IMG/VR virus record: IMGVR_UViG_2778261058_000020
Origin: a virus
Taxonomy: Duplodnaviria; Heunggongvirae; Uroviricota; Caudoviricetes
DNA length: 28,767 bases
Direction: 5' to 3' (one strand)
A program made the position numbers and the translations under genes. The notes under the pieces were generated by a model. That model saw only the letters and a list, made by a program, of their open reading frames with translations. It made no database searches and was not told where the DNA came from. Of this stretch, positions 2,989 through 25,795 are shown one piece after another (the stretch's first letter is position 1; every line of letters begins with the position of its first letter).

Positions 2989-3216
2989 ATGATGTCACGG
3001 AATATCAAAATGGCAACGGAAGTAAAGAGCTGGTTACAAGAGCGCGGCAGCCACGTCAACGAATCCTGGCTGGGCGTAGCCCGCCCGGTGCTTGAAATCA
3101 CCTGCCCACCACCGGAGCTTGTCAGGAATGCTGTCAGGATTATGGAGCATAAATCAGGGGTTGCCCGTTCAGTATGGACGGCCCGTCTTAATGGTTGTCA
3201 GATTATCTGGAGATGA
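2989..3216 (+). CDS. kil: Kil-like small early protein (about 75 aa); start chosen at internal ATG after GGAG, track ORF starts 2947
   Basis: Small ORF immediately downstream of B, as kil is in Mu; GGAG just after the B stop codon precedes ATGATG at 2989. Confidence 0.5.
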
Positions 3217-3219
3217 AAG

Positions 3220-3501: not shown

Positions 3502-3542
3502 ATCCTGCGATATGACAAATGATATTAGAAAGGAGAAACAAA

Positions 3543-3812: not shown

Positions 3813-3828
3813 TTTCAGGGAAGGAGGC

Positions 3829-4119
3829 ATGATGATAATCCCTCGCAAAAGATGGTCACGCGAAGACCGGGAATTTATCGAAGCCAACGTCGGAAAAATG
3901 ACCGTCGAGGAAATGGCGAAAAAACTGAACGTTGCCCCAACCGCCCTACAGGCACATGCCAGAAGGCACGGAATATCGTTGTGTGCATACCGGGTCAGTG
4001 AGCACGACAAATATTTGTGTCGTGAACTTTATAAAGAAGGGCTGGCTATTCATGTCATTGCCCAAAAGATGGAATTAAGCAATCGTGCTGTATCCAGCAT
4101 TGTATACAGCGAATATTAA
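3829..4119 (+). CDS. Hypothetical DNA-binding protein with two helix-turn-helix-like segments (about 97 aa)
   Basis: GGAGG upstream of ATGATG at 3829 (track ORF 3754..4119); segments MTVEEMAKKLNVAPTALQAHARRHG and LAIHVIAQKMELSNRAVSSIV resemble HTH motifs. Confidence 0.5.
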   Translation: MMIIPRKRWSREDREFIEANVGKMTVEEMAKKLNVAPTALQAHARRHGISLCAYRVSEHDKYLCRELYKEGLAIHVIAQKMELSNRAVSSIVYSEY

Positions 4120-4139
4120 TTAACAGGAGCTTTATTTAT

Positions 4140-4664
4140 ATGGCTAAACCAGCAAAACGAATCAAGAACGCCGCAGCGGCTTATGTTCCGCAATCCCGCG
4201 ATGCCGTGGTATGTGATATCCGCCGGATTGGTGACCTGCAACGCGAAGCGGCACGACTTGAAACGGAAATGAATGACGCTATCGCTGAGATTACGGAGAA
4301 ATACGCCTCACAGATTGCACCTCTTAAAACCAGTATTGAAACCATTTCAAAAGGCGTTCAGGGATGGTGTGAAGCGAACCGCGACGAACTGACGAACGGT
4401 GGCAAGGTGAAGACGGCAAACCTGGTAACCGGCGATGTGTCATGGCGTCAGCGCCCGCCATCGGTAAGTATTCGCGGTGTGGATGCGGTGATGGAAACGC
4501 TGGAGCGTCTTGGCCTGCAACGCTTTATTCGCACGAAACAGGAAATCAACAAGGAAGCGATTTTACTGGAACCGAAAGCGGTCGCAGGTGTTGCCGGAAT
4601 TACAGTTAAATCGGGCATTGAAGATTTTTCTATTATTCCGTTTGAACAGGAAGCCGGTATTTAA
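4140..4664 (+). CDS. gam: Host-nuclease inhibitor Gam (Ku-like, RecBCD inhibitor), 174 aa
   Basis: Track ORF; AGGAG RBS; sequence MAKPAKRIKNAAAAYVPQSRDAV ... IEDFSIIPFEQEAGI matches Mu Gam as I recall it, same length. Confidence 0.85.
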   Translation: MAKPAKRIKNAAAAYVPQSRDAVVCDIRRIGDLQREAARLETEMNDAIAEITEKYASQIAPLKTSIETISKGVQGWCEANRDELTNGGKVKTANLVTGDVSWRQRPPSVSIRGVDAVMETLERLGLQRFIRTKQEINKEAILLEPKAVAGVAGITVKSGIEDFSIIPFEQEAGI

Positions 4665-4704
4665 TACCACCACGAATATTTAATTAATTCACTTTCTTTT
4701 AATT

Positions 4705-4989
4705 ATGGCGCGATGCGTCAGGGGATTGCTCGCGCCTGAATCTGAAATGGTGATGTTTATGACCACAAAGAGTGAACGACAAAAAACAGAAATAACAGCA
4801 GCAACGCTGATTAAAGACAGCGCCGAATGTCTGGCATCAGTACCTGCATTGATTCAACAGGCGAATGCAAAAAATCTCCGTCGCGCAGCTTCGTTTATTC
4901 GTGCAGGCATTACCCGCCAGATGATGATTGCGCAGCTGTGTATGCGCGAAGCACAGCGTCTGGAACAGATGGAGACGAGCGGTGATTAA
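4705..4989 (+). CDS. Hypothetical small protein; true start uncertain (ATG 4705, 4747 or 4759)
   Basis: Track ORF; several in-frame ATGs; GGTGA-like RBS precedes the ATG at 4759. Confidence 0.4.
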   Translation: MARCVRGLLAPESEMVMFMTTKSERQKTEITAATLIKDSAECLASVPALIQQANAKNLRRAASFIRAGITRQMMIAQLCMREAQRLEQMETSGD

Positions 4990-5179
4990 GTCAATTGGCT
5001 TTGTCCTGCTGGTTGGCACCTGCGGGAATGATGCCTGTGATGCTATCCCGGTAACAGAAAAAATCTGGCCCACAGAGCAGGCATGTATGCAGGTGATGGA
5101 GCGCATACAAAAACGTTATCCCAATGAAATCTTTTATTGCGAGGAGGTATTAAGAAATGAAAATACAGATGATTACTGA
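4982..5179 (+). CDS. Small Cys-containing protein with N-terminal hydrophobic segment, possible secreted or lipoprotein (about 65 aa, GTG start proposed)
   Basis: Track ORF 4928..5179 (TTG start); GTG at 4982 gives a GTGATTAA-type overlap with the upstream stop; N-terminus IKSIGFVLLVGTCG is hydrophobic; 4 Cys. Confidence 0.35.
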   Translation: MIKSIGFVLLVGTCGNDACDAIPVTEKIWPTEQACMQVMERIQKRYPNEIFYCEEVLRNENTDDY

Positions 5180-5492
5180 TGCTGATTTAATGGCTGCAAC
5201 CTTAATTTCCAGTGGCATGCCAGAACAAAAGGTAAATGATTTCCTGGATAATGTCGTATACCAGCACTATGAGCAGGCCAGAGAAAATTTAATTTCAGAA
5301 AAGCTCACGATGATTGCTGAATCATTAAGTCCTGCATGGATTATCGAAGAGTTGCGGGGAATCATTGCCAGCCAGGATAAAGTGGCGGCAGTTGCCGCCC
5401 TCGATGTGCTACAGCGAATGAGTAAAGAGCTATTCAACACTGAATTAATTTTTAAATCCGGGGGACATAATGAGCCGCACATCCCTAATTAA
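5157..5492 (+). CDS. Hypothetical early protein (111 aa)
   Basis: Track ORF; strong GAGGAGG RBS upstream of ATG 5157; 3' end overlaps the gemA start. Confidence 0.5.
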   Translation: MKIQMITDADLMAATLISSGMPEQKVNDFLDNVVYQHYEQARENLISEKLTMIAESLSPAWIIEELRGIIASQDKVAAVAALDVLQRMSKELFNTELIFKSGGHNEPHIPN

Positions 5493-6021
5493 ATTAATTC
5501 ATGTTGCCCGTCGGGAGTTGCAACTCGACGATGACACTTACCGAGCTTTTCTGGTGCAGTGCACGGGCAAAACCAGTTGCCGCGAGCTGTCTGTTGCACA
5601 ACTGGAACAAGTGCTCGATGCCATGAAAGAGCGCGGTTTTAAAAAGCAGAAAAAACATCCCCGCCGTCGCTTTAAGGGGCATGTCACACCGCGCGAGAAG
5701 ATTTATAAAATCTGGCAGCAGATGTTTCTTGATGGTTTCGTCTCCGATATCAGCGACGCCGCGCTGGACAAATACGTTGAACGTCTGACGGCCAGACGTA
5801 ATGGTGGTCAGGGTGTTTCCACGCTGGCCTGGTGTCATGGGGAATCGTTGCAGGTTGTGCTCGAAACGCTCAAGCAGTGGCATATGCGCTGCATTCGGGA
5901 AGCCTTTGCCCGACATGGCGTGCCTTTACCTGTGAGCGAAACCGGGCGGGAACTGCGCGGATATGATGCACTGACCAGTGCGTATGCCCGCGCCAGAAAC
6001 AGCGGGAGAATAGTTCTATGA
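5470..6021 (+). CDS. gemA: GemA-like protein (Mu gp16 family), 183 aa
   Basis: Track ORF; size and position directly upstream of mor with ATGA start/stop overlap; sequence resembles Mu GemA as recalled. Confidence 0.7.
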   Translation: MSRTSLIKLIHVARRELQLDDDTYRAFLVQCTGKTSCRELSVAQLEQVLDAMKERGFKKQKKHPRRRFKGHVTPREKIYKIWQQMFLDGFVSDISDAALDKYVERLTARRNGGQGVSTLAWCHGESLQVVLETLKQWHMRCIREAFARHGVPLPVSETGRELRGYDALTSAYARARNSGRIVL

Positions 6022-6419
6022 AAGAGCAGGATTTATTTGGTGATTATCAGGACGACAGTATCCTTGAATATTTTGATGATGTTCAGGAAAAATCGGGATT
6101 TCCATCTTTACTGGCTGAGCTGAATGCTCTGTTGCGACAAGAGCTGATAAGGCTTGGAGTTAACCCTGCCCACTCCCTTGAGCTGGTAGTGGCGATTTGC
6201 AATCATATCGGTGGGATTCAGGTATATGTTCCGAAAGGGAAAATACTGGAAAATCTTATCAGAGACATGCGCATCTGGCGTGATTTTGATGGGAAAAACG
6301 TAGCGGAGCTGGTGCAGCGTTACAAAGTGACATACAAAACGGTATATCAGGCCATCAAAAGAATGCGCCGACTGGAGCGTGGAAAGTATCAAATGCAACT
6401 ATTTAAGGACGAACAATGA
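6018..6419 (+). CDS. mor: Mor/C-family transcription activator (middle operon regulator-like), 133 aa
   Basis: Track ORF; C-terminal GGIQVYVPKG linker followed by an HTH (VAELVQRYKVTYKTVYQAIKRMRR) typical of the Mor/C family; follows gemA as in Mu. Confidence 0.8.
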   Translation: MKEQDLFGDYQDDSILEYFDDVQEKSGFPSLLAELNALLRQELIRLGVNPAHSLELVVAICNHIGGIQVYVPKGKILENLIRDMRIWRDFDGKNVAELVQRYKVTYKTVYQAIKRMRRLERGKYQMQLFKDEQ

Positions 6420-6913
6420 AATATCTTCCCCTTATTCTTTTACTAACTGTTACTACTGTACAAGCGGCGGATACATTCCAGCAAAAAGTCAAAGATGTTT
6501 TTCAGAAAAAAACATCCGTTGACTATACCGACTGGTACGGTAAAGGTGACGCTGCCATTGCTGAGTTTAAAGGATTTAACTTAGGTGTATATCAGGATTT
6601 AAAGACGTCTGTGCGAGATAACGAAATCAACATAAAAATGCAGTATGTTACAGGACCGGTTCGCCCCGATAGCGACGAGTTCGCTCAAATGACGTCTGCT
6701 TTATGTGAAACTGTTTTTGAGCCTTTTGTTGTCCCTGATTATGTTCGCCCGACATCATGGGACGATGATACCCCAGCCCCGCTGAATTTCATGCAAGTTA
6801 AAAATTTAAAGCAAGCTGAAGATGATCCTGTCGAAAAAACAGTAAATGGCTGGAAGATAAAAATTGATCGTTCAGTAATGAAGACTACGTGTTCTGCCCG
6901 TAAAGTTAACTGA
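6416..6913 (+). CDS. Secreted (periplasmic) protein of unknown function with cleavable signal peptide, 165 aa
   Basis: Track ORF; N-terminus MKYLPLILLLTVTTVQA followed by ADT (AXA-type cleavage site); ATGA overlap with the mor stop; coding sequence looks AT-richer than its neighbours. Confidence 0.6.
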   Translation: MKYLPLILLLTVTTVQAADTFQQKVKDVFQKKTSVDYTDWYGKGDAAIAEFKGFNLGVYQDLKTSVRDNEINIKMQYVTGPVRPDSDEFAQMTSALCETVFEPFVVPDYVRPTSWDDDTPAPLNFMQVKNLKQAEDDPVEKTVNGWKIKIDRSVMKTTCSARKVN

Positions 6914-6935
6914 ACCAATAACCTTATATTCAATG

Positions 6936-6959
6936 AAGCCGGTAAATCCGGCTTTTTTT
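6936..6959 (+). terminator. Rho-independent terminator-like hairpin (AAGCCGG-TAAAT-CCGGCTT plus T7)
   Basis: Perfect 7-bp stem, 5-nt loop, run of seven T; sits 23 nt after the stop codon of ORF 6416..6913. Confidence 0.7.
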
Positions 6960-7014
6960 ATGCCTCCGGCACCATGAAGCAGACCACGTTTAAATCTGCT
7001 TCACAGGTGCTTTT

Positions 7015-7611
7015 ATGGAAAATCTAAAATTCTCCCCGGCCTTTGAGCATGCGCTGAATTTTATTCTGCGTCCTGATATCGAAGGCGGCTATGTCAATGA
7101 CCCCACTGACAGTGGCGGCGAAACCAAATACGGCATTTCTGACCGCCGCGACGGTGTGATTGACGGCAAAACCGATGTCAACGGCGACGGCAAACCGGAT
7201 ACCCGCATTAAGGATTTAACCCGCGAACAGGTTGCGCAGATTTACTGGCGCGATTACTGGCTACCTGCCGGATGTGACCAGTGGCCTGATGGCGTGGCGA
7301 TGTTTGTGTTCGATGCGGCGGTTCAGCATGGCGTTAAAAAAGCCATCAGGATTTTGCAGGAAGCCGCTGATGTGGATGCTGACGGCATCATCGGCCCACG
7401 TACCCGTAAGGCCGTGAGCCTGTCCACACCGGATTGGTTGCTGGCCCGCTGCATTGTCCGTCGTTCCTGCTTTTATGCCGACATCATCAAGTCAAAACCC
7501 GCCCAGGGCAAATACCTGAACGGCTGGTTTAACCGCATGGAAAAACTGACCGACGCCTGTCTGGAAATCATCGATACCCCTTTGGGCATCATGTCCGCCA
7601 CGCGGGGGTGA
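7015..7611 (+). CDS. lys: Endolysin, GH108-type N-terminal domain plus PG_binding_3-like C-terminal domain (198 aa), no N-terminal TM/SAR segment
   Basis: Track ORF; motifs EGGYVNDPTDSGGETKYGIS and RDYWLPAGCDQWPDGVAMFVFDAAVQHG ... DGIIGPRTRKAV typical of GH108/PG-binding-3 lysins; position equals Mu lys. Confidence 0.75.
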   Translation: MENLKFSPAFEHALNFILRPDIEGGYVNDPTDSGGETKYGISDRRDGVIDGKTDVNGDGKPDTRIKDLTREQVAQIYWRDYWLPAGCDQWPDGVAMFVFDAAVQHGVKKAIRILQEAADVDADGIIGPRTRKAVSLSTPDWLLARCIVRRSCFYADIIKSKPAQGKYLNGWFNRMEKLTDACLEIIDTPLGIMSATRG

Positions 7612-9054: not shown

Positions 9055-9344
9055 TCAGAGCCAACTGGCCCATTCTGTGGGCATTGCTGATGACAGGAAT
9101 AAACCTGCTTCAGTTGATTCTGGCAAAGACCTACGTCAAACGCGAAGAGTTTGATTTGCTGCGTTCCCGCGTGTCGGTGATGGAAAGCCAGGTACATCAG
9201 CTACCTGATCGTGATGAGTTCCACCGCCTGCAACTGGATATCAGCAACCTGCGGGGAGAAATCAAAGAGCTGGGGCCATCCATCCGCCAGGTATCCCGCA
9301 TCAGCGATTTGTTATTAGAGAACGAGTTAAAGGAAAAAAATTAA
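9039..9344 (+). CDS. Small membrane-anchored coiled-coil protein (101 aa, GTG start); possible lysis or morphogenesis accessory
   Basis: Track ORF; AGGAGG RBS upstream; N-terminal hydrophobic helix WPILWALLMTGINLLQLIL then charged helical region. Confidence 0.5.
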   Translation: MSWEMIRANWPILWALLMTGINLLQLILAKTYVKREEFDLLRSRVSVMESQVHQLPDRDEFHRLQLDISNLRGEIKELGPSIRQVSRISDLLLENELKEKN

Positions 9345-10658: not shown

Positions 10659-12190
10659 CACAGATGAACACGTTCAGTGAATACGATGTTCTGCTGCCGT
10701 ATCAGAAACGCTGGGTGGCGGATGATGCCGACCTGAAAATCGCCGAGAAATCCCGCCGTACCGGTTTAACCTGGGCGGAAGCTGCGGATGCGGCACTGAC
10801 GGCATCACTGAAGAAGGAAGACGGCGGGCGCGATCACTTTTATATCGGTTCGAATAAGGAGATGGCCCGCGAATTTATCGACGCCGTGGCGATGTGGGCG
10901 AAAGCGTTTAATGCGGCAGCGGAAGAAATCTGCGAGGAAGTGATCACCGACGAAGACAAGGACATTCTGACGTTCGTCGTGTACTTCGCCAGCGGTTTTA
11001 AGGTCAAGGCACTGTCCAGCAACCCGAGCAACATTCGCGGGATGCAGGGGAATGTCACCATCGACGAGGCCGCGTTCCATGAAAAACTGGACGAACTGCT
11101 GAAGGCCGTGCTGCCGCTGAAAACATGGGGCGGCAAAATTCGCCTTATTTCCACCCATGACGGCGTGGACAACCTGTTTAACCAGCTGATTCAGGAAAGC
11201 CGGGCGGGCAAAAAAGATTACAGCATTCACACCATCACGCTGGACGACGCCTGCAATGACGGGCTGTACCGGCGTATCTGTCAGGTGCGCGGCATGGTGT
11301 GGTCACCGGAAGCCGAGGCGGAATGGAAAGAAGGCCTGCTACGAAATACCGCCACCCGCGAAGACGCACTGGAGGAATATTACTGCGTCCCGAAAAACGG
11401 CGGCGGCACGTATATCCCCCGCTCACTGCGTGAACGTGCGGCCCGTGGCACCGGAAAAGTGTTGCGCTTTACCGGCACACCGGAATTTAACGCACTGACG
11501 GAAAGTCAGCGCCGGGCAGATATCCGGGAATGGCTGGAAACAGTGGTGCGCCCCGAGCTGGAAAAACTCCCGAAGAACCTGCGCCACTGTCTGGGGGAAG
11601 ACTTTGCGCGTTCGGGTGACCTGACCGTACTGGCCCCTGTGACGGTGAACGATGACACCACCCGCGAGGTGCCGTTCCTGGTTGAGCTTGGCAATGTGCC
11701 GTTTAAACAGCAGGAGCAGGTGCTGTTCTGGCTTTGCGATCGTCTGCCCCGTCGTGACGGCATCAAAATGGATGCGCGGGGGAATGGTCAGTATCTGGCA
11801 GAACAGGCGGCGGAGCGGTACGGCGATGAAGTGGAACAGGTGATGCTGTCCGTGGCGTTCTACCGCGAAAACATGCCCCGTTTCCGTGCGGCGTTTGAAG
11901 ATGATGAGCTGATCCTTCCGAAGCATGAAGACGTGATCAATGACCTCGGGGCCATTCAGTTACTGCGTGGCATTCCCGGCATTGATGATGCCCGTACTAA
12001 AGGCAGCGATGGCCGCAAGCGTCACGGCGACGCCGCGGTGGCCATTTTCCTGGGCTTCCTTGCCAGCAAGGATGACTGCCACCGTTATGAGCTGCACCGC
12101 CTGAACCGCCCGGCGAAACCGGAAGAACGCAACGCGCGCCGCCAGATGAAGCTGACACGCGGCCTGAAAAATGAGGGAGGTTTACTGTGA
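10655..12190 (+). CDS. Terminase large subunit (Mu gp28-like), 511 aa
   Basis: Track ORF; ATGA overlap with upstream gene; size and position before the portal gene; deviant Walker-A-like KSRRTGLT near N-terminus. Confidence 0.85.
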   Translation: MTQMNTFSEYDVLLPYQKRWVADDADLKIAEKSRRTGLTWAEAADAALTASLKKEDGGRDHFYIGSNKEMAREFIDAVAMWAKAFNAAAEEICEEVITDEDKDILTFVVYFASGFKVKALSSNPSNIRGMQGNVTIDEAAFHEKLDELLKAVLPLKTWGGKIRLISTHDGVDNLFNQLIQESRAGKKDYSIHTITLDDACNDGLYRRICQVRGMVWSPEAEAEWKEGLLRNTATREDALEEYYCVPKNGGGTYIPRSLRERAARGTGKVLRFTGTPEFNALTESQRRADIREWLETVVRPELEKLPKNLRHCLGEDFARSGDLTVLAPVTVNDDTTREVPFLVELGNVPFKQQEQVLFWLCDRLPRRDGIKMDARGNGQYLAEQAAERYGDEVEQVMLSVAFYRENMPRFRAAFEDDELILPKHEDVINDLGAIQLLRGIPGIDDARTKGSDGRKRHGDAAVAIFLGFLASKDDCHRYELHRLNRPAKPEERNARRQMKLTRGLKNEGGLL

Positions 12191-13758
12191 ACCTGAAACA
12201 ACTGGCCGGGGCCGTTCGCCGTCTGCTGAACCCGGCAACCGGTGAGGAAGACACGCTGAAAAAAGAGGCGCTCAACGAAGCACAGGCCCGTCCGCGTCAT
12301 GCCGGTGTGCGTTCGGCCTCGCCGGGTATCAGCGTCGCCTCCGGGCTGAACCCCGGCAGGCTGGCAGGCATTCTGCGCAATGCTACTGACGGCATCACGC
12401 GTGATTTTTTTATCCTTGCTGAAGAGATGGAAGAACGCGATTTGCATTACGCCTCGGTACTGCGCACCCGCAAGCTGACGGTGGCGGGTATCGAACCGGT
12501 GGTGGTGGCCGCCAGTGATGACGATGCTGACGTGCAACTGGCGGACGCCATCCGTGCACTGATGGAGGCACCGCAAATCCCTGAGCTGATGTTTGATCTG
12601 CTCGACGGGCTGGGAAAAGGCGTGGCGGTCTGTGAAATTTTGTGGAACACCCGCAACAACCACTGGGTGCCCCGTGATTATGAGTGGGTTGATCCCCGTT
12701 TTCTGAAAGCCGAAAAGCCCACGCTGCGCCAGTTCCGCCTGCTGACAGACGATGAACCGGTGGATGGTGTACCGCTGACACCTGGAAAATTCATTGTTCA
12801 CCAGCCGCGCCTGAAATCCGGTTTGCCGCTGCGTAACGGTCTGGCCCGTCTGGTGGCGGTGATGTACATGCTGAAATCCTTTACCGTGCGCGACTGGTGG
12901 GCATTTGCGGAAAAATTCGGCATTCCGGTCACGGTGGGGAAATACGGCCCCAACGCCACGGAGGAGCAAATCCGCGTGCTGATTGATGCGATTGCTTCCA
13001 TTGCCTCGGATGCCGGGTGTGCCATTCCGCAGTCCATGCAACTGGAAATGAAGGAAACCGCCAGCCGGAATAACGGCGGCGCACTGTTCCGTGAAATGGC
13101 GGAATGGTGTGATGCGCAAATCAGTAAGGCTGTGCTGGGGCAGACCATGACCACGGATAACGGCAGTTCGCGTTCACAGGCGGACGTGCACAATCAGGTG
13201 CGCATGGACATTGTGCGCTGGGACGCGCGGCAGCTGGCTAACACGCTGAATGAATATCTGGTGCGGCCCTACATCGAGGCCAACTACGGGCCACAGGAAC
13301 ACTACCCCCGTGTTGTTCTGCGTATCAGTGAAGCGGAAGATCTGAAGGCGCTGACAGATGCTCTGGTGCCGCTGATTGACCGGGGGATGCGGGTTCAGGA
13401 ATCGGAGCTGCGGGACCGGTTCGGCCTGGCTGAACCGGACGACGGGGCTGATGTTCTGCATCCGGTGTCTGCCGGAATGTCAGGTGATGTGGCGATGAAC
13501 CGCGAGCGCGTCGCCCTGAACCGGGAACACCCCGATGAACTGGCACAGATGGTGGATGATGCCCTGCGTGACTGGCAGAAAACCGGCGAGGCGTTCACGA
13601 ACCCGGTGCTGACACTGGCGCAGGAATGCGACAGTTTTGATGACTTTCTGAAACGCCTGCCTGAGCTTCAGGAAACGCTGAACGCGGACGACTTTGCCCT
13701 GCAACTGGCGGAGGTGTGCTTTAAGGCGCGTGCGCTGGGGGACACCGGTCATGCGTGA
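12187..13758 (+). CDS. H: Portal protein (Mu gp29 / DUF935 family), 523 aa, GTG start
   Basis: Track ORF; GGAGG RBS; overlaps terminase stop; size and order typical of Mu portal. Confidence 0.85.
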   Translation: MNLKQLAGAVRRLLNPATGEEDTLKKEALNEAQARPRHAGVRSASPGISVASGLNPGRLAGILRNATDGITRDFFILAEEMEERDLHYASVLRTRKLTVAGIEPVVVAASDDDADVQLADAIRALMEAPQIPELMFDLLDGLGKGVAVCEILWNTRNNHWVPRDYEWVDPRFLKAEKPTLRQFRLLTDDEPVDGVPLTPGKFIVHQPRLKSGLPLRNGLARLVAVMYMLKSFTVRDWWAFAEKFGIPVTVGKYGPNATEEQIRVLIDAIASIASDAGCAIPQSMQLEMKETASRNNGGALFREMAEWCDAQISKAVLGQTMTTDNGSSRSQADVHNQVRMDIVRWDARQLANTLNEYLVRPYIEANYGPQEHYPRVVLRISEAEDLKALTDALVPLIDRGMRVQESELRDRFGLAEPDDGADVLHPVSAGMSGDVAMNRERVALNREHPDELAQMVDDALRDWQKTGEAFTNPVLTLAQECDSFDDFLKRLPELQETLNADDFALQLAEVCFKARALGDTGHA

Positions 13759-14515
13759 AACTCTCATCCCGAAAGAGGCGCTGGCGTGGCTGAAGGCGAA
13801 GAAGCTGCGCCCCGGTTTTGATTACCGGGATGTATGGCGGGAAGAACACCGGAACAGCTTCACCGTGGCAAAAATGCTGCAACTGGATTTGTTGTCGGAT
13901 GTGAAAGCCCTTGTGGAAGACGCCCTGCAAAGCGGGCAGACGTTCAGCGAGTTCCGGGAGGCGCTGCAACCGCTGCTGATAAAACACGGATGGTGGGGCG
14001 TACAGGAGATGGATGATCCGCTGACGGGCGAAACCCGAACCGTACAGCTGGGCAGCGACCGCCGCCTCCGCACGATTTACGATACCAACATGCGCACCGC
14101 CCGCGCGGCGGGCCAGTGGGAACGCATTCAACGGACAAAGCGGGCCATGCCGTATCTGATTTACGAGCTGGGGCCATCCCGCGACCACCGGGCGGAGCAT
14201 GTGAAATGGGCGCGTCTGTGTCTGCCTGTAGACCACCCGTTCTGGCAGACGCATTTCGCCCCTAACGGCTGGGGCTGCAAATGCACCATCCGTCAGGTCA
14301 GCCGTGGTGAATATGCGCAACTGGCGGCACAGGGCACCATTCACACCGAAGCGCCGGAAATCAGAACTGTCCGCTGGGTGAACAAACGCACGGGCGAAGA
14401 GGAAGATGTGCCGGAAGGGATTGATCCGGGCTGGAACTACAATCCCGGCATAAACCGTGAGCAGGAGCTGGCGCGCCAGCTGGCGACAAAACAGGCCCGT
14501 TTTGACAGTGAGTAA
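13751..14515 (+). CDS. F: Head morphogenesis protein F (Mu gp30 / SPP1 gp7-like)
   Basis: ATG 13751 overlaps the portal stop by 8 nt (track ORF extends to 13694); position and size match Mu F. Confidence 0.8.
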   Translation: MRETLIPKEALAWLKAKKLRPGFDYRDVWREEHRNSFTVAKMLQLDLLSDVKALVEDALQSGQTFSEFREALQPLLIKHGWWGVQEMDDPLTGETRTVQLGSDRRLRTIYDTNMRTARAAGQWERIQRTKRAMPYLIYELGPSRDHRAEHVKWARLCLPVDHPFWQTHFAPNGWGCKCTIRQVSRGEYAQLAAQGTIHTEAPEIRTVRWVNKRTGEEEDVPEGIDPGWNYNPGINREQELARQLATKQARFDSE

Positions 14516-14728
14516 CCCTCCCGCCGTAAATCCCCCTGAAACGCATCAGAAACGCGTTTTTTATTCTGATGGCGTGAATGTGCATTCTGACGTTTTTGAA
14601 GATGCTGTGGCGTTTTTGAAGGGGTTTTGAAGGGGGTATTTCCCCGTTTTCAGTGAAGCCGGTAAATCCGGCTTTTTTTCTGCCTTCCGCATACTGACCG
14701 TCGGTAACCCCAAACGACGGAGACTGAC
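14516..14728. promoter_or_regulatory. F-I intergenic control region: hairpin, palindrome, three tandem TTTTGAAG repeats, second copy of terminator/dyad cassette; candidate late promoter and/or gyrase site
   Basis: Only sizeable non-coding gap in the late region; hairpin CATCAGAA/TTCTGATG (14544-14571); GAATG-TG-CATTC (14576-14587); CGTTTTTGAAG at 14591-14601 and 14611-14621; GTTTTGAAG at 14624-14632. Confidence 0.5.
14656..14679 (+). terminator. Rho-independent terminator-like hairpin, second copy (AAGCCGG-TAAAT-CCGGCTT plus T7)
   Basis: Identical in sequence to the hairpin at 6936-6959; follows gene F and precedes gene I. Confidence 0.7.
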
Positions 14729-15691
14729 ATGCAACCGGAACTGCTGGCGCTGTGTTTTTCCCTGCCAGAACCCATCCCTGAGCTGACACCCGCTCAACTG
14801 CCTGAATGGCTTGAACTCGTTCCTGCGGGTGAGTTCACCGGGCGCGATGGCCGGACGTGGATTAACCGCAATCCGCATGAGGTGGTCACCCGTTCGTCCG
14901 ACATCAAAATTCCGGTGGACATTGAACACGCCACCGAAATTAAAGGGCAACGCGGTGATGAAGCCCCGGCGTATGGCTGGGTGGAAGAACTGCGCGTGAC
15001 GGACAGCGGCACCATTGAAGGCCGTGTTGTCTGGAGCGAGTACGCCCGGTGGATGCTGAGCGAACGCCGTTACCGCTATTACAGCCCGGCGTTTTTCTTT
15101 GACGCAGACGGTGTGGTGACGCGCCTGTCCAGCGTCGGGCTGACCAACAAACCTAACCTGGATTTTCCTGCACTGAATACGGAGAAAAACCCGATGACAG
15201 TACCTGTGCAAATCACCGGCCTGCTTGGGCTGGCTGAATCTGCCACGGTGGACGATACCGTGGCCGCCATTAAACAACTTCAGGAGAACGAACAGGTGGC
15301 GCTGAACCGCGCACAGACACCTGACCTGACGAAGTTTGTACCGGTGGAAACCCACAATCTGGCACTGAACCGTGCCGAAACCGCAGAACAACGCCTTCAG
15401 CAACTGGAAGAGAAGGAAGCAGAAGCGCTTGTGGATGCGGCCATCGAAGCCGGAAAAGTGGCCCCGGCAAACCGTGACATGTTCCTTGCCACCTGCCGCA
15501 CGGAAGAAGGCCGCAAACAGTTTGCGGAATACACCAAAGGTGCACAGCCGCTGGTGAACAACGACAAGCCCAGCCAGGGCAAGGATAAACCCGCGCAGAC
15601 ACTGACCGACGCCGAACTGGCGATGTGTCGCAGCATGGGTATTACCGGGGAAGAGTTCCTCACCGCTAAACCGAAACAGGAGAATAACTGA
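14729..15691 (+). CDS. I: Head maturation protease / scaffold protein I (Mu gp32-like), 320 aa
   Basis: Track ORF; GGAG RBS; N-terminal protease-like region and Ala/Glu-rich helical C-terminus; immediately upstream of major head gene. Confidence 0.75.
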   Translation: MQPELLALCFSLPEPIPELTPAQLPEWLELVPAGEFTGRDGRTWINRNPHEVVTRSSDIKIPVDIEHATEIKGQRGDEAPAYGWVEELRVTDSGTIEGRVVWSEYARWMLSERRYRYYSPAFFFDADGVVTRLSSVGLTNKPNLDFPALNTEKNPMTVPVQITGLLGLAESATVDDTVAAIKQLQENEQVALNRAQTPDLTKFVPVETHNLALNRAETAEQRLQQLEEKEAEALVDAAIEAGKVAPANRDMFLATCRTEEGRKQFAEYTKGAQPLVNNDKPSQGKDKPAQTLTDAELAMCRSMGITGEEFLTAKPKQENN

Positions 15692-16593
15692 TGGGAGCAG
15701 TCACTTCCGAAGTCCTTCACGCGCTGACCACCTGCCTGAGCGCCGCTTATACCCGTGGTCTGAGTGGTGTCACCCCACAGTGGCAGCGCATCGCCTCTGA
15801 AATCCCAAGTTCGTCCGCCTCCAATACCTACGGCTGGATGAAAGATTTACCGGAGATTAAGGAATGGGTCAGCGCCCGTCAGATGGCAACGCTGGACGGT
15901 TATGGTTACACCCTGGCGAACAAAACCTGGGAAAGTTCGATCCGCGTTAAACGCGAACACATTGAAGACGATCAGATTGGTCAGTACAGCATTATCGCTG
16001 AACGCTATGGCCGCCAGACATCGGAGTTCCCGGACAAGCTGTGTTACCCCCTGCTGTGTGCCGGGTTTAACACCCTGTGTTTTGACGGTCAGAACTTCTT
16101 TGATGAAGACCACCCGCTGGGCGACGGCACCTGCAGCAATGTTGTCGGCACCCCGGCATCAGACCAGGGAGAGCCGTGGTTCCTGATTGATGATTCTCAG
16201 GTACTGAAACCCATCATCTGGCAGACGCGACGCGCCTTTAAGTTTGAAGCCCTGGATGATCTGAACAGCGAGCACACCTTCAAGAATAACGAGTTCCTTT
16301 ACGGGGTGGACGGTCGCTGCAATGCGGGCTTCGGCTTCTGGCAGACCGCCGTCGGTTCCCGTGCGGCACTGACAGCGGAGAACTACGAGAAGGCCAGCAA
16401 TCTGCTGCTGGGTATGAAGACCACCAACGGTGAACCGCTGGGCATCCGCCCGACCACCCTTGTGGTGGGACCGAAAAACCGCGCGGCGGCGAAGCGCATC
16501 ATTGACGCCATGCTGGTTAACGGCGGCGATTCCAACATCTGGTACAAGGATGTGGACATCGTGGTCAGCCCGTTCATCACCACGCCGGCATAA
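15691..16593 (+). CDS. T: Major head (capsid) subunit T (Mu gp34-like), 300 aa
   Basis: Track ORF; start overlaps the I stop; size and position typical of Mu T. Confidence 0.8.
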   Translation: MGAVTSEVLHALTTCLSAAYTRGLSGVTPQWQRIASEIPSSSASNTYGWMKDLPEIKEWVSARQMATLDGYGYTLANKTWESSIRVKREHIEDDQIGQYSIIAERYGRQTSEFPDKLCYPLLCAGFNTLCFDGQNFFDEDHPLGDGTCSNVVGTPASDQGEPWFLIDDSQVLKPIIWQTRRAFKFEALDDLNSEHTFKNNEFLYGVDGRCNAGFGFWQTAVGSRAALTAENYEKASNLLLGMKTTNGEPLGIRPTTLVVGPKNRAAAKRIIDAMLVNGGDSNIWYKDVDIVVSPFITTPA

Positions 16594-16618
16594 CCCGTCG
16601 CGTAACCTGTAAACCGCA

Positions 16619-16665
16619 GTTAAAAGGCGCTGTGAATGCCCTTTTAACTGCCTTTTAAAAGGCAG
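16619..16665 (+). promoter_or_regulatory. Two adjacent hairpins after the capsid gene; the second is a perfect 18-nt palindrome covering the likely RBS of the next gene
   Basis: GTTAAAAGGC...GCCCTTTTAAC (16619-16648) and CTGCCTTTTAAAAGGCAG (16648-16665); ATG of next ORF at 16670. Confidence 0.5.
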
Positions 16666-16669
16666 AGTC

Positions 16670-16981
16670 ATGAGTGAAAAAGCAGGAACCAAAGGCGCGA
16701 AAGCCGCAAAGAACAGCACAGCACAGGAAAACCCGGCACCGCTGGCAGACGTTATTGTGGCTGACGGTCAGGCGAATGAACCACGTCCGGCTGAAGACCC
16801 GGTTACTGTACAGGGTGACGCCCCTGTCCGGCTGAACGTCCGGGCCGTGTCTGAAAACGGGTTCTGGCGCTGTGGCCGTTTCTGGTCACATGCCGGTGAG
16901 GATGTGGCGGTGACCGCTGCGGTTGCCAACCGCCTGATGGCAGAGCCGAATCTGATTGTCCGGGAAGCGGAGAAAGGCTGA
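16670..16981 (+). CDS. Mu gp35-like small head-associated protein (103 aa), function unknown
   Basis: Track ORF; located between major head gene and gp36-like gene. Confidence 0.5.
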   Translation: MSEKAGTKGAKAAKNSTAQENPAPLADVIVADGQANEPRPAEDPVTVQGDAPVRLNVRAVSENGFWRCGRFWSHAGEDVAVTAAVANRLMAEPNLIVREAEKG

Positions 16982-17418
16982 TGGGGTATATCACGCAGGA
17001 AGACCTGTTACGCGCGGACGGCAATCTTGTCTGGAACATGGCGATTAACCGGGAAACCAACGAACTGGATGAAGACAAAATCCGTCAGGCCATCAGTGAT
17101 GCCGAAGCGGAAATTGATTCGTTTCTGTCCCGCCGCTACCAGCTGCCGCTGGGAGTGACGGAAATCCCGCGCCCGCTGCAACGCGTGGCGGTATCGCTGG
17201 CGTTTTACTGGTTGTCAGAGCGTGACAATCAAATCACGGAGCTGATCCAGAAACGCTACGACGACGCCATTAAAACCCTGCGTGAGATGGCGAACGGCAC
17301 CCGTGACCTGGGTCTGCCGACGTATGCCACCCCGGCAGAAACCGACCACGGGAAGATCATTGTGGTGGGTGCCAATGCCCGGCTGTTCACCCGTAACAAC
17401 CTGAAAGGGGTGCTGTGA
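16981..17418 (+). CDS. Mu gp36-like protein (DUF1320), head-tail joining candidate
   Basis: Track ORF; start overlaps previous stop; size and position. Confidence 0.6.
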   Translation: MGYITQEDLLRADGNLVWNMAINRETNELDEDKIRQAISDAEAEIDSFLSRRYQLPLGVTEIPRPLQRVAVSLAFYWLSERDNQITELIQKRYDDAIKTLREMANGTRDLGLPTYATPAETDHGKIIVVGANARLFTRNNLKGVL

Positions 17419-17960
17419 TGGGGATTTCTGTACAGGTCAGCGGTGACCAGCGGCTGGAGGATATCCGCCGTGCCGTTGAAAAGCTGGCAGATGGTTCATT
17501 GCAGGCAGAGCTGCTGGAAAGCATCGGTGCGGTGGTGGAATCACAGACCCGCCGCCGCATCATCGATGAGAAAACCAGTCCGGGTGGCGAACGCTGGCCG
17601 GACTGGTCTGACGGGTACAAAAAGACCCGCCACGGCAACCAGAGTCTGCTGCGCGGTGAAGGCCATCTGCTGGAGAGTATCCAGTACATCGTGGAAAACC
17701 GCGTGGTGCGTATCGGTTCACCGCTGGATTATGCCCGCATCATGAATGACGGCTTTTCCGGCAGTGTGCCGGTCAGCGCCCACAAACGGCTTATCTCGCA
17801 GTGTTTCGGGCGGGCGCTGAAATATCCGGTCTGGCAGACCGTCGGCGCACATAACCGCATGATGAACATTCCGCAACGTGAATTTCTGGGGCTGTCTTCT
17901 GCCAATCAGCAGGAGCTGCAACAGGTTATCAGTCATTTCTGGAAGGAGGTTCTGCCATGA
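17415..17960 (+). CDS. Virion morphogenesis / tail completion-like protein (Mu G / P2 S-like), 181 aa
   Basis: Track ORF; overlaps neighbours at both ends; sequence resembles the phage virion morphogenesis family. Confidence 0.5.
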   Translation: MMGISVQVSGDQRLEDIRRAVEKLADGSLQAELLESIGAVVESQTRRRIIDEKTSPGGERWPDWSDGYKKTRHGNQSLLRGEGHLLESIQYIVENRVVRIGSPLDYARIMNDGFSGSVPVSAHKRLISQCFGRALKYPVWQTVGAHNRMMNIPQREFLGLSSANQQELQQVISHFWKEVLP

Positions 17961-18568
17961 CAGAACAACGCCCTGAACTGCGCACACCGGGGAGCACCGT
18001 TGCGGCCGCAGAGCGCATTGTGGCCTGGCTGAAAACAGCACTTCAGGGGAAAACCCCTGACCGGGCCGACGTGGTGGAGCGTCACATCGGCCAGTTCAAC
18101 AGCCCGGAAGAAGTGAAGCGCTATCTGTCCGGTCGTACCGGCTGTATCCGGGTAGCTGCCCTGCGTGTCCGGGATATCAACCCGCGCGGCGGGCTGTCCG
18201 GTCTGGTTACCTGGGTGGCTTACATCATGGCGACGGATTCGTGGGGGTACTCCCGCGACGTGCGCTGTGAAGTGCTGGCCGGAAAGGTGATCAAACGTCT
18301 GCTGTCGTCGGATGCCACAGCGGGCATGGGGGCTGAACGCCTGGCTGCTGATGTGCGGGCAGACAACATTTACTCCGCCAGCCTCGACGGGCTGGGTGTC
18401 ACCATGTGGGCGGTGACGTGGGAGCAGGAATTTCGGCTGGATGAAGAGATTGATCTCGCCGCGCTCCCGGACTTCCTGCGCCTCGGGGCAACGCTGCGTA
18501 GCGGTGAACACACTGAAATTAACGACGTGATCCATGTACGGGGTGACGATGGAACAGAAACTGATTAA
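17957..18568 (+). CDS. Mu gp37-like protein (DUF1834), 203 aa
   Basis: Track ORF; ATGA overlap with upstream gene; position before sheath gene. Confidence 0.6.
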   Translation: MTEQRPELRTPGSTVAAAERIVAWLKTALQGKTPDRADVVERHIGQFNSPEEVKRYLSGRTGCIRVAALRVRDINPRGGLSGLVTWVAYIMATDSWGYSRDVRCEVLAGKVIKRLLSSDATAGMGAERLAADVRADNIYSASLDGLGVTMWAVTWEQEFRLDEEIDLAALPDFLRLGATLRSGEHTEINDVIHVRGDDGTETD

Positions 18569-18734: not shown

Positions 18735-20209
18735 TGTCGCTGGGTTCAATTCCTGATGATATCCGCGTCCCGCTTGTCTGGATCGATATCGACAATTCAC
18801 AGGCGCTGGATGGTGCATCCGCGCAAAGCCGAAAAATTCTGGTCATGGGCCATGCGGTATCGTCCGGCAGCGCAGACGCCCTGTCACTGACCCGCATCAC
18901 CAGTGACAGCCAGGCAGACCAGCTTTATGGCAAAGGGTCGATGCTGGCTGAAATGCTCAAAATGCTGCGCCGTGCCAACACGTACACGGAAACCTGGGCA
19001 ATGCCGGTTGCCGCGCCTGAAGGCGCTGCCGCAAAAGCCACGCTGACCGTGCTGGGTACAGCGACTGAAGCCGGAACGGTGGCACTGCTGATTAACGGTG
19101 TGTCCGTTCAGGTGAGCGTGAGCGCCGGGGCTACGAAGGAAAACATTGCAAAAGCCATTGCTGATGCGGTGACGAAAAAGCCTGCCACGCAGGTGGCCGC
19201 TGCGGTGAAGGATGATGCCACGGATACCGTGGAGCTGACCGTGAACTGGCACGGCGTCACCGGCAACGGTGCCGACGTTCGCCTGAACTACTACACCGGT
19301 GAAGCCTTCCCGGCAGGTGTGAAGGTGACCGCTACTGCGTTTACCGGCGGCACCGGGACACCGGAAATGGCGGATGCCGTTGCGGCCATCGGCCCGGAGT
19401 GGTTTACCGATATCATCGCCCCGTTCACCGACACGAAAAGCCTGAACACCCTGCGTGATGAACTGCTGAACCGCTGGGGGCCGCTCAAAATGATGGAGGC
19501 GCAGCTGTGGACGGCGTTTCGTGGCACGCACGGGGAAACCGGTACGTTTGGTGAAACCCGCAATGACTGGCTGATTAGCTGTATCGGCACCAACCTGTCA
19601 CCGCATCCGGCGTGGATGTGGGCCGCGTCATACGGCGCAACGGCAGCGTATCACCTTGCCATTGACCCGGCGCGTCCGCTTCAGACGCTGGTCCTGACCG
19701 GCATTCTACCGCCTGCGCGTAATGTTCGCTGGGATATGCCGGAACGTAACCTGCTGCTGCATGACGGCATTGCCACGCACATGGTGGACGCCGGGGATAA
19801 CGTCTGCATCGAGCGTGAAATCACCATGTACCGGGTTAACCAGTACGGTGATGCGGATGTGTCGTACCTGGATGTGCAGTCCCCCGCCACGCTGGGCCGT
19901 ATCCGTTACATCATCAAAAACCGTTTCACGAACCGTTATCCGCGCCACAAGCTGGCAGATGATGACGTGCTGGACTCACTGGATGCGGGGCAGCCGGTGA
20001 TGACGCCGAAGCTGTGCACCGCAGAGCTGCTGGATATCTGCCAGACCGAACTTATTCCTGCGGGCCTTGTGGAGAACTTCAGCGATTACAAGGACACGCT
20101 TCAGGTGACACGCGACAGCAGCGATAAAAACCGCCTGAACTTTATCTGCCACCCGAATCTGGTGAACCAGCTGCGTGTGCTGGCAGGCCTGATTCAGTTC
20201 AAGCTTTAA
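18734..20209 (+). CDS. L: Contractile tail sheath protein L (Mu gp39-like), 491 aa
   Basis: Track ORF; size and position before tail tube gene. Confidence 0.85.
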   Translation: MSLGSIPDDIRVPLVWIDIDNSQALDGASAQSRKILVMGHAVSSGSADALSLTRITSDSQADQLYGKGSMLAEMLKMLRRANTYTETWAMPVAAPEGAAAKATLTVLGTATEAGTVALLINGVSVQVSVSAGATKENIAKAIADAVTKKPATQVAAAVKDDATDTVELTVNWHGVTGNGADVRLNYYTGEAFPAGVKVTATAFTGGTGTPEMADAVAAIGPEWFTDIIAPFTDTKSLNTLRDELLNRWGPLKMMEAQLWTAFRGTHGETGTFGETRNDWLISCIGTNLSPHPAWMWAASYGATAAYHLAIDPARPLQTLVLTGILPPARNVRWDMPERNLLLHDGIATHMVDAGDNVCIEREITMYRVNQYGDADVSYLDVQSPATLGRIRYIIKNRFTNRYPRHKLADDDVLDSLDAGQPVMTPKLCTAELLDICQTELIPAGLVENFSDYKDTLQVTRDSSDKNRLNFICHPNLVNQLRVLAGLIQFKL

Positions 20210-20218
20210 GGGGACCAC

Positions 20219-20575
20219 ATGGCAAAAATTCTTGGCATGGCGACCATTCGCGTGAATGGCCGCGAAATTAAAACCGAGGGGAAATCCACGCTGAACCCGG
20301 GCGGCTTCAGCCGCACCCAGCATATGGGCGGCGGCAAGGTCTGGGGCATCTCCAGCAAGATGGCCTCGCCGTCCATCAAAGTGACCATTGCGGCGGCTGC
20401 GGATATGGACGTGATTGAAATCAGCAGCTGGGAAGACGTCACGGTGATGTTCTACGGCGACAATGGCCTGAACTACATGATGACGGGTTCCGCCACGGAT
20501 AACCCGGCGGAGCTGGACGAGGATTCCGGCACCATCAGTGCCAACTTTATCGGTGAAAAATGCGTGAAGGTGTGA
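20219..20575 (+). CDS. M: Tail tube protein M (Mu gp40-like), 118 aa
   Basis: Track ORF; 9 nt after sheath stop; size typical of tube protein. Confidence 0.75.
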   Translation: MAKILGMATIRVNGREIKTEGKSTLNPGGFSRTQHMGGGKVWGISSKMASPSIKVTIAAAADMDVIEISSWEDVTVMFYGDNGLNYMMTGSATDNPAELDEDSGTISANFIGEKCVKV

Positions 20576-20576
20576 C

Positions 20577-20972
20577 ATGGCCGCGATGGAATTTGAACTG
20601 AAACACGGGCTTCTGACCGGCAAAGGCACGGCAGATGAAACCCTGCATAAAACCGTGAAGCTGCGCGAACTGACCGCCAGTGATGTGATTGATGCACAAC
20701 TGGCCGCAGAACGCGTCGTCATGGGCGGGAACGGAAAGGCGGTGGCCTACTGTTCTGAAGTGCTGATGGGGCTGGAGATGATGCGCCGTCAGGTCGCGGC
20801 CATCGGCAACATTCCCGGCCCGCTGGACATGAAACAGCTGCGAATGCTCCACCCGGCAGACCTTGAACTTATCAGCACCAAAGCCGCTGCGCTGGATGAC
20901 ATGCTTGAGGAGGTGGCAACGCGGGGGCGAACTGATGCCGCTGGCGGCGGCACTGATGAACCTGCTGGTTAA
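20577..20972 (+). CDS. Tail assembly chaperone (lambda G analogue), 131 aa
   Basis: Track ORF; lies between tube and tape-measure genes; an overlapping alternative-frame ORF extends its 3' end. Confidence 0.6.
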   Translation: MAAMEFELKHGLLTGKGTADETLHKTVKLRELTASDVIDAQLAAERVVMGGNGKAVAYCSEVLMGLEMMRRQVAAIGNIPGPLDMKQLRMLHPADLELISTKAAALDDMLEEVATRGRTDAAGGGTDEPAG

Positions 20973-25268: not shown

Positions 25269-25795
25269 ACGCCATTACCCGCCGTCTGCGGCTGATGGTT
25301 GACCGTGCCATTGTCCGCATGGTGTCTGACAGTCTGGAGCGGCAGAATCTTCAAATTCAGACGCTGGCAGATGCCACTGATGACGATGTGGAACGCTTCC
25401 AGAATTACGGTTTTACTTCCGTTCCGCCGGAAGGTTCAGAAGCCATCGTGCTGGCCGTGGGCGGACGGCGTGATGGTCTGGTTGCCATCGCGGTGGAGGA
25501 CAAGCGATGTCGCCCTAAAGGACTGTCCCCCGGCGATGTCCGGCTGTATCACCAGGACGGCAAATCACATATCACGTTAAAGAAAGGCGGTATTATTGAA
25601 ATCACAGGAGAACAATTAAATCTTTCAGGGAAAACGGTAAATCTCACCGCCGACGAATTGCTGAATATTATCGGTAAACAAATGAAATTCGTCGGTCCCT
25701 GTGAATTTACTGAAGATGCCACCATCAACGGCAAATCATTCATCGAACACATTCATAAGGACGGCGACAATGAGAATACATCACCGCCCGTATGA
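25259..25795 (+). CDS. Baseplate assembly / spike protein (Mu gp45, gpV-like), 178 aa
   Basis: Track ORF; order and size. Confidence 0.6.
   Translation: MGLNAITRRLRLMVDRAIVRMVSDSLERQNLQIQTLADATDDDVERFQNYGFTSVPPEGSEAIVLAVGGRRDGLVAIAVEDKRCRPKGLSPGDVRLYHQDGKSHITLKKGGIIEITGEQLNLSGKTVNLTADELLNIIGKQMKFVGPCEFTEDATINGKSFIEHIHKDGDNENTSPPV

Follow-up and report, generated by a model that had tools for sequence, protein, structure and literature searches.

A probable relative of the Mu strong gyrase site and a predicted Mor-type promoter in the F-I gap of a Mu-like Escherichia coli prophage

The gap between the head genes F and I

The stretch of DNA analysed here, the window, is 28,767 nucleotides long (IMG/VR record IMGVR_UViG_2778261058_000020) and comprises most of a Mu-like Escherichia coli prophage. 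Its late region is tiled up to approximately 27.9 kb by open reading frames (ORFs) of coding length on the plus strand, and the largest spacer among them is the gap of 213 bp between the head genes F and I (14516-14728). The remaining late-region spacers in the ORF list measure 101, 76 and 86 bp, which agrees with an earlier reading of the letters alone (the sequence-only reading) that had taken this gap for the main non-coding stretch of the late region and had proposed a late promoter and possibly a strong gyrase site in it. The hairpin, the palindrome, the tandem motif copies and the repeated cassette listed in that reading are all present, at the positions given there or at most two bases away. 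Comparison with phage Mu and its relatives makes it probable that the gap is one composite control region, in which a relative of the Mu strong gyrase site (SGS) is combined with a terminator and a Mor-dependent promoter for gene I. Within this reading our confidence is higher for the promoter part and lower for the gyrase function.

Among the window proteins, Pfam searches recognized the portal protein, F, I and T, the major head protein, together with one protein like gp36 and a virion morphogenesis protein like G. The left boundary of the gap is the 3′ end of F (13751-14515, plus strand; PF04233), which codes for a head morphogenesis or minor head protein; its start was taken from the RefSeq annotation of a 99.3% identical prophage (positions 20052-20816 of locus L001). 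On the right follows gene I (14729-15691, plus strand; PF10123), which codes for the head protease/scaffold with 26% identity to Mu I. Gene G is missing between F and I, as had been noticed before, and a G-like gene sits after the gp36-like gene (17415-17960, plus strand; PF05069). Its protein matches Mu G over the full length (24% identity, E = 6e-6) and gave no match to Mu gp37. The sole Mor/C-family gene found is a mor orthologue (6018-6419, plus strand; PF08765), whose product shares 63% identity with Mu Mor and 32% with Mu C. A second member of this family was neither found by the family search nor annotated in L001, and a C gene is absent. The portal gene (12187-13758, plus strand; PF06074) and T (15691-16593; PF10124) complete the head genes assigned around the gap.

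Of 5,426 complete E. coli genomes, 49 carry the same element (95-99% identity), with up to three copies per genome and one occurrence on a plasmid, which is consistent with recent transposition activity. The best match, in strain ETEC1703 (locus L001), is a prophage of 35,259 bp (4961-40219) that is flanked by the 5-bp duplication CTCTT. The prophage ends are 92-95% identical to Mu attL and attR, and the transposase is 91% identical to MuA. A megablast search with the head region against the phage collection matched no phage record because the head module is too diverged, and a scan of genome contigs with the I protein returned a single relative, in Brenneria. The prophage is thus a mosaic of Mu's transposition machinery and a distant head module, as seen when window 1-6913 is set against 12187-18568. 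This module resembles those of the Klebsiella phage Kp4866-3 and the Brenneria prophage (58-60%). The carriers are mainly porcine and bovine enterotoxigenic and Shiga toxin-producing E. coli strains (ETEC/STEC), together with one human-associated clone.

Phased tracts related to the Mu gyrase site's right arm

In Mu, the gyrase cut is annotated at 17879/80, in the gap between G and I (17860-18055). Sutormin et al. used a 133-bp SGS fragment that corresponds to Mu 17812-17944, and report that the Mu SGS reaches a score of 14.3 with the Topo-Seq weight matrix, the top score in Mu (Sutormin et al., 2019). The right arm of the site is essential and the left arm dispensable, and the central position is required (PMC10052514; PMC13284261; PMC3820752).

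The F-I gap of the window contains three copies of TTTTGAAG, starting at 14594, 14614 and 14625 (14594-14601, 14614-14621 and 14625-14632; spacings of 20 and 11 bp), just as the three tandem copies had been described from the letters. One further copy was found in the 28.8 kb. Against an expectation of 0.98 copies for all of the window, three within 39 bp are far beyond chance. Together, the three phased T-tract/GAAG motifs and the GGGGGTATTTCCCCGTTTT that follows them form a candidate SGS right arm (14593-14650, no strand assigned), which is homologous to Mu 17891-17951. It agrees with what a Mu-type right arm should have, namely phased, anisotropically flexible T/A tracts related to the essential Mu 17890-17950. 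The Mu right arm has three T-tract/A-tract motifs with spacings of approximately 21 and 12 bp, which align opposite the TTTTGAAG triple, and both arms continue with GGxGTAT...CCCGTTTT. The sequence-only reading had proposed aligning the gap to the Mu G-I region; done here, this alignment revealed the right-arm homology, the triple block reaching z = 4.2 against the Mu right arm, a score that was attained by 4 of 1000 shuffles.

Stronger similarities were found through intermediates. The strains TUM9757, PEC422 and SE11 carry a true Mu-type prophage with F, G, the gap and I as well as Mor and C. In the G-I gap of this prophage the right arm is identical to the window block in 44 of 46 positions (z = 26; blastn E = 1e-10), and the gap is homologous to that of Mu throughout, including ATAAAATCA at the cut site. 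The F-I gap of the Klebsiella phage Kp4866-3 matches the window block with z = 13.6, and this whole gap matches the Mu gap with z = 10.8, over Mu 17889-17933. The Brenneria prophage has the same layout as the window. Direct similarity to Mu is modest, but the intermediates match both, and the homology of the tracts to the Mu right arm is therefore firm. The substitutions that distinguish close E. coli variants affect the palindrome, GTATTTCCCC and the bases that separate tract 1 from tract 2, and the three tracts are unchanged; UMNF18 has one G inserted right after the second TTTTGAAG copy.

A block of 46 bp (window 14593-14638; positions 20001-20046 of locus L003) is 94-98% identical between this prophage lineage and the SE11/TUM9757 Mu-type prophage, and its flanks are unmatched on both sides. 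This points either to the exchange of tiny modules between co-resident prophages or to very strong constraint. In the O157 Sp18-type gap, phased tracts are visible by eye and no significant similarity to the window was found. The tracts of this type in the G-I gap of O157:H7 F8952 read ATTTTCTAA, TATTTAA and CTTTAAAA and lie beside the near-palindrome AAGGTATGCAAATGCATTACCTT. Between F and G of that Mu-like prophage, the RefSeq annotation has a "tRNA-OTHER" on the minus strand (positions 1065-1145 of locus L013).

To see how widely the tracts occur, IMG/VR was scanned with the core of tracts 2 and 3 as pattern (GCGTTTTTRAA-N5-TTTRAA), which is present at at least 120 loci. Among the 120 matches listed, 59 have an I homologue in the locus, and in 57 I starts 29-443 bp downstream on the same strand. 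On the 36 contigs of 30-45 kb among them, the tract motif is located at a median of 3% of the length from the centre. From the 55 I-associated spacers of this list with full 200-nt context, 31 representatives that are less than 80% identical were chosen; these share little outside the tracts, and GCGTTTTTRAA is kept. SGS-like sequences of Mu-like prophages were reportedly treated by Oram and Pato in 2004.

For comparison of the register, the G of GCGTTTTT was used as anchor. In Mu it is located at +34 from the first base of the stagger, which was placed at 17876-17879 (AATC) on the assumption that the SGS fragment is centred like the published consensus. The T/A junctions lie at about +21, +41 and +52 in Mu, in the window and in the Klebsiella group, and the tract register relative to the mapped cut of Mu is kept within 1 bp. 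GGTAC-GATG is found at exactly the same offset in 11 of the 31 representative spacers; the unrelated viral contig L114 has GCGT-GAAT-GTG at the offset of the window, and L024 has Mu's AATC-ACCGCAG at the cut register. Read from the register with Mu 17876-17879 alone, the predicted 4-bp gyrase stagger in the window is GAAT (14576-14579, no strand assigned). A Mu-like cleavage core (ATAAAATC/AGCCGCACAG) was looked for at the homologous register and is not present in the window. Other Mu-like phages have differing core types at this register, and therefore the Mu core may not be a defining part. Core types that vary at a fixed distance from the arm are what a gyrase complex wrapping a single arm would require.

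Within the prophage, the site falls at 0.45 of the length, compared to 0.487 for Mu. Since position and right arm agree with Mu and a Mu-type core is lacking, the site is probably an SGS homologue with a different core type. The gyrase site proposed from the letters thus gains computational support from right-arm homology, register and position. A/T periodicity of 10.75 bp was also detected at 14609-14655 (z = 4.1), which is the third-best site of the window and at least as strong as the Mu arm. The strongest 10.75-bp periodicity of the window (z = 4.8, 75-bp frame) is found in the spacer after T (16594-16669), which also contains the paired hairpins TTAAAAGGCG...CCCTTTTAA and GCCTTTTAAAAGGC.

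Left of the tracts, the 8-bp-stem hairpin of the sequence-only reading is present at 14544-14571 (plus strand; CATCAGAA/TTCTGATG), with eight perfect pairs and a 12-nt loop (-11.5 kcal/mol, z = -2.1). It is near-invariant in the six aligned sequences of the E. coli lineage (the window and five variants), and it lacks a counterpart in Mu, in the Klebsiella phage and in Brenneria. Its place would correspond to the gyrase site's left arm, the dispensable one. The palindrome GAATGTGCATTC (14576-14587, no strand assigned) begins at the predicted stagger. It exists as described, but it is not conserved even in close E. coli variants, where it reads GAATGTACACCC (VL40) and GAATGCACACTC (FDAARGOS_943); its symmetry is therefore probably incidental. 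Directly after the F stop codon lies CCGTAAATCC (14524-14533, plus strand), which aligns with a perfect hairpin of the Klebsiella phage, GAGGCGGTAATCCGCCTC (positions 2752-2769 of locus L006), and looks like a decayed copy of it. The Klebsiella hairpin resembles the core of the Mor-box cassette described below, so that the gyrase site may formerly have had a cassette-like element on either side. Right of the tracts, GGGGGTATTTCCCC (14632-14645) was considered as a dyad for protein binding that recurs upstream of mom; this was rejected, as the match is a single 10-mer and the dyad varies in close relatives.

A Mor box over a terminator-like hairpin upstream of gene I

Mor binds a dyad at -51 to -36, with the centre at -43.5, in a promoter that has a -10 hexamer and no -35 (PMC4287176). 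C sites have been described likewise, with the dyad centre at -43.5 (PMC2582627). From these numbers we infer a Mor box of 5+6+5 bases, the sole reading of the Mu Pm sequence that fits them: AGTAA-AGCCGG-TTAAT at Mu 9173-9188.

In the window, a Mor box AGTGA-AGCCGG-TAAAT is located at 14652-14667 (plus strand) and is identical to that of Mu Pm in 14 of 16 positions. It overlaps the hairpin GAAGCCGG-TAAAT-CCGGCTTT with its run of seven T, the first three of which lie in the stem (14655-14679, plus strand). The hairpin proper (14655-14675) has an eight-pair stem with five G-C pairs and a folding energy of -12.8 kcal/mol, and none of 200 shuffles folds as well; the T run extends to 14679. A G+C-rich hairpin directly before a U run is what defines an intrinsic terminator, and this one would act on the lys...F transcripts. 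The -10 hexamer CATACT (14690-14695, plus strand) is separated from the Mor box by 22 nt, as TATCCT is in Mu Pm, and is homologous to CAAACT of Mu PI. A -35 hexamer is absent, and a consensus promoter scan of the gap found no sigma-70 -35/-10 pair. The transcription start is predicted at 14703 (plus strand), which is the box centre plus 43.5, the distance taken from PMC4287176 and PMC2582627.

The sequence-only reading had called this element the second terminator/dyad cassette. It is indeed a second copy, since the 26-mer TGAAGCCGGTAAATCCGGCTTTTTTT is identical at 6934-6959 and 14654-14679; its description has to be corrected to a Mor box that overlaps a terminator. The first cassette (6932-6975, plus strand) is located upstream of the endolysin gene (7015), in a position equivalent to that of Mu Pm directly behind the early operon, and consists of the Mor box AATGA-AGCCGG-TAAAT (6932-6947), the hairpin with T run (6935-6959) and the -10 hexamer CACCAT (6970-6975). 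The Mu Pm region reads AGTAA-AGCCGG-TTAAT-CCGGCTTTTTTT, with TATCCT 22 nt after the box. Compared to this, window 14652-14679 (AGTGA-AGCCGG-TAAAT-CCGGCTTTTTTT) is identical in 26 of 28 positions and window 6932-6959 (AATGA-AGCCGG-TAAAT-CCGGCTTTTTTT) in 25 of 28, here with CACCAT 22 nt after the box. In Mu, the early terminator t9.2 coincides with the Pm dyad.

The cassette is also present in relatives. The Klebsiella phage has one before the lysis gene, with a dyad identical to that of Mu Pm. A diverged copy precedes I in this phage, and the single cassette of Brenneria is likewise located in front of I. Among the 31 representative viral spacers, 13 contain the cassette, ten at 46-49 nt and three at 69-70 nt from the anchor. 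The -10 region CCTTCCGCATACTGAC is homologous to CCTCCCGCAAACTGAC of Mu PI, and the promoter part of the gap matches Mu with z = 3.5, Klebsiella with z = 9.5 and Brenneria with z = 12.6. In the I-proximal copies of Klebsiella and Brenneria the U run is broken. This suggests that Mor binding is probably the conserved role of the cassette and that termination is secondary.

All sequence hallmarks of a Pm-type promoter are found at the gap, namely the 16-bp dyad, a -10 at Pm spacing without a -35 and an encoded cognate Mor. For a C-dependent PI, a C protein and a C box at -51 to -36 would be expected, and neither is there. Since Mor is encoded, C is not, and the box is of Mor type, the promoter is predicted to be Pm-type and not a C-dependent PI. 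The late promoter proposed from the letters is thus present as a candidate with Pm-type architecture; the dependence on C that a PI-like promoter would have is not expected without a C gene. Since this phage has neither the middle operon nor C, its lysis and head genes are presumably under the direct control of Mor. In place of a middle operon, mor is followed by an ORF of 165 codons without Pfam match, then by the Pm-type cassette and then by the endolysin gene (6018-7015), which implies a transcription cascade of two tiers, not three.

Two other interpretations of the cassette were discarded. One was a symmetric site for an activator with its centre in the hairpin loop, at about -37; it does not agree with the Mu Pm box, which overlaps the left arm and the loop and gives -43.5. 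The motif TTCAnTGAA, which both window cassettes share, is not conserved in relatives.

An inverted repeat, CCGTCG...CGACGG, spans the predicted start and the Shine-Dalgarno sequence (GGAG, 14719-14722) of I (14698-14720, plus strand). It can fully form in read-through transcripts only, and might therefore distinguish read-through from promoter-initiated mRNA. Inverted repeats at this place are kept by differing sequences, CCGTCG/CGACGG, GTCCGTC/GACGGAC and CTGCTCA/TGAGCAG, among the window, Klebsiella, Brenneria and Mu (about 2950-2978 in L006; 18026-18050 in L002). The sequences of this I-leader hairpin align poorly across lineages in a covariation alignment.

Further elements resembling the cassette were found in the late genes. 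Within the baseplate V-like gene, AGGGA-AAACGG-TAAAT has both Mor half-sites and is followed by TATTAT 24 nt later (25627-25672). The next gene begins approximately 150 bp further on, and this element might represent a third promoter of Mor type; caution is needed here, as Mu has five matches to the short pattern ARNCGGTWAATCC compared to 0.43 expected, four of them within late genes. The dyad GCCGGATTAACCGGT at 28147-28161 is an inverted cassette core without T run, approximately 40 bp upstream of the start codon of a tail gene.

A probable composite control region and its relation to Mu

The features can be combined into the following model. The left and central part of the gap, at about 14560-14650, would be the homologue of the central SGS of Mu. 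Host gyrase would bind there with its cleavage centre near 14576-14579, and the right arm of TTTTGAAG tracts would be wrapped around a C-terminal domain of GyrA. Processive supercoiling from this near-central site might then help to pair the Mu-type ends for the MuA-type transposase after induction. The right part (14652-14703) would act through its Pm architecture, with the Mor box over the terminator hairpin and the -10 22 nt further on. The hairpin would halt transcripts arriving from the lys...F unit, and Mor, the sole Mor/C-type activator, would recruit RNA polymerase so that the I-T head operon starts near 14703. The sequence features, homologies, spacing and register, the conservation across phages, the genome position and the presence of mor without C are observations; that gyrase binds and cuts here, that transposition is affected, that the promoter depends on Mor, and where transcripts start and end are what we infer from them.

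Several observations weigh against this model. The core of the window, GGCGT-GAAT-GTGCA, is unlike that of Mu, CATAA-AATC-AGCCG. Comparison of the whole gap with the Mu gap is not significant (the score was reached by 55 of 1000 shuffles), and nothing left of the tracts matches Mu (z = 0.7 for the left part, which matches Klebsiella with z = 4.4). The site is located 1.7 kb (4.9% of the length) left of the centre, compared to 0.5 kb (1.3%) for Mu, and a spacer before I at mid-genome would result from the conserved gene order by itself. Periodicity is not discriminating, the Mu SGS itself being merely in the top 0.1% of positions; because the Mu arm and the window arm both fall in the extreme tail and neither is unique there, periodicity is supporting evidence at most. 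An A/T template derived from the published 133-bp consensus was tried as gyrase score and discarded, as it missed Mu's own SGS. The sequence of GCGTTTTTRAA is more strongly conserved than an arm read purely by its shape would seem to require, so that a different binding protein is conceivable. For the promoter part, the Mu Pm box and -10 coordinates used in the comparison were reconstructed from published positions.

In another view, which we consider unlikely, the promoter and terminator part stays as above and the tracts serve the I promoter as a regulatory element upstream of it that tunes late head-gene expression, with any gyrase site lying elsewhere. The element might be phased curved DNA, or consist of tandem sites for a host nucleoid protein (IHF, Fis, H-NS), the C-terminal domain of the RNA polymerase alpha subunit or a phage factor. 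The tracts are located approximately 70-110 bp upstream of the predicted start, as is usual for activating or curved DNA, their direct repeats 11 and 20 bp apart share one helix face, and the preservation of GCGTTTTTRAA across 31 diverged spacers suggests base-specific recognition; moreover, equal or stronger A/T periodicity exists elsewhere in the window. However, the homologous block of Mu is the essential right arm of the SGS, as known from purified gyrase and from deletions (PMC10052514; PMC13284261). The distance from the tracts to I varies widely (29-443 bp), which disfavours a promoter element, yet the distance from tracts to core is fixed to the base pair, and spacers with quite different downstream promoters retain the same tracts.

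It is distinctly improbable that the spacer is a mere operon boundary, made of a terminator for lys-F and a promoter for I, with tracts that were inherited and have no role in supercoiling or transposition, be it in a domesticated prophage or next to an inactive core. Such decay would account for a core and a left arm that differ from those of Mu and for a site off centre by 1.7 kb. Against it, the tracts are invariant while neighbouring bases change, unlike in non-functional DNA, and the 46-bp block is nearly identical across two prophage lineages whose flanks do not match. The prophage also looks active, being multi-copy and having intact Mu-type ends, the 5-bp duplication and an intact transposase. 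A small RNA or small protein encoded by the region, in place of sites that act at the DNA level, is very improbable indeed. It would rely on a weak Rfam match to sroD (14592-14680, 22 bits, E = 0.05) and on an ORF of 57 codons with a GTG start (14457-14630). The Rfam scan of the gap yielded no family at threshold; the sroD match is far under the 50-bit threshold and its score is probably driven by the terminator hairpin within it, and the ORF overlaps the end of F in a different frame. In addition, it is the T/A tracts and the dyad that are conserved, not codons, and close variants differ by single-base indels.

The composite control region therefore remains our preferred reading, as a probable one. 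Each of the two element types has a known precedent in Mu, and in this respect the annotation is well supported and fairly ordinary; a specialist would expect an SGS in a prophage with MuA and Mu ends. The new points are modest: the site follows F, since G has moved, and the late genes appear to be wired to Mor. With the reading, the largest late-region spacer of this prophage family gains a specific anatomy of cut, right arm, Mor box with terminator, -10 and start. It suggests that the central gyrase site travels with the spacer preceding I rather than with gene G. It also suggests that conservation lies in the right arm, the core being of several types, and that right arms may pass between co-resident prophage lineages. 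The loss of C together with Pm-type boxes before lys and I would be a simple change, made by nature, in how the transcription cascade of Mu is wired.

Why Mu-type sites alone support Mu replication is a long-standing puzzle. The 31 distinct natural variants with fixed register are a comparable series for work on gyrase. It is conceivable, if on the doubtful side, that the tandem GCGTTTTT(G/A)AA-N5-TTT(G/A)AA, at its base-pair-exact distance from a variable core, is a dedicated code, common to many diverse Mu-like phages, that captures gyrase or an unknown partner. If so, the dozens of natural variants would be a ready-made series for finding out what makes a gyrase site "strong"; gyrase site, terminator and Mor-driven promoter would in this lineage be fused in one module of 150 bp, and the cascade would be shortened to two tiers in which Mor drives the late genes directly without C.

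Compared to the Mu SGS, the site in the window is alike in its location, a spacer that borders head gene I on its upstream side, in the central part of a transposable prophage of approximately 35 kb with Mu-type ends and transposase. Three phased T-tract/A-rich motifs lie right of the cut in both, in homologous right-arm blocks with junctions at about +21, +41 and +52. The two differ in that the window site follows F and has no G upstream, in the core (GAAT in the window, AATC in Mu), in flanks and left arm, which are unrelated in sequence, and in the tracts, which are TTTTGAAG in the window and TTTTTAAA in Mu. Approximately 25 bp of Mu's interval between arm and promoter are missing in the window.

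The promoter shares with the C-dependent PI of Mu its position upstream of I, the homologous -10 region, the lack of a -35 and an inverted repeat at the start region, whereas its box is of Mor type, not a C box (ATTAT-N6-ATAAC type), and the C gene is lacking. With Mu Pm it shares a Mor-binding dyad that overlaps a terminator-like hairpin, which in Mu is located at the end of the early operon, the cassette of 28 nt with 26 identities, the distance of 22 nt to a -10 of the form xAxxxT without -35, and an upstream mor gene, whose product is the orthologue described above. The half-sites are one base apart each, AGTGA in the window and AGTAA in Mu, and TAAAT in the window and TTAAT in Mu. Pm is single in Mu and drives the middle operon that makes C, whereas the window has at least two such elements, which directly face the lysis and the head genes.

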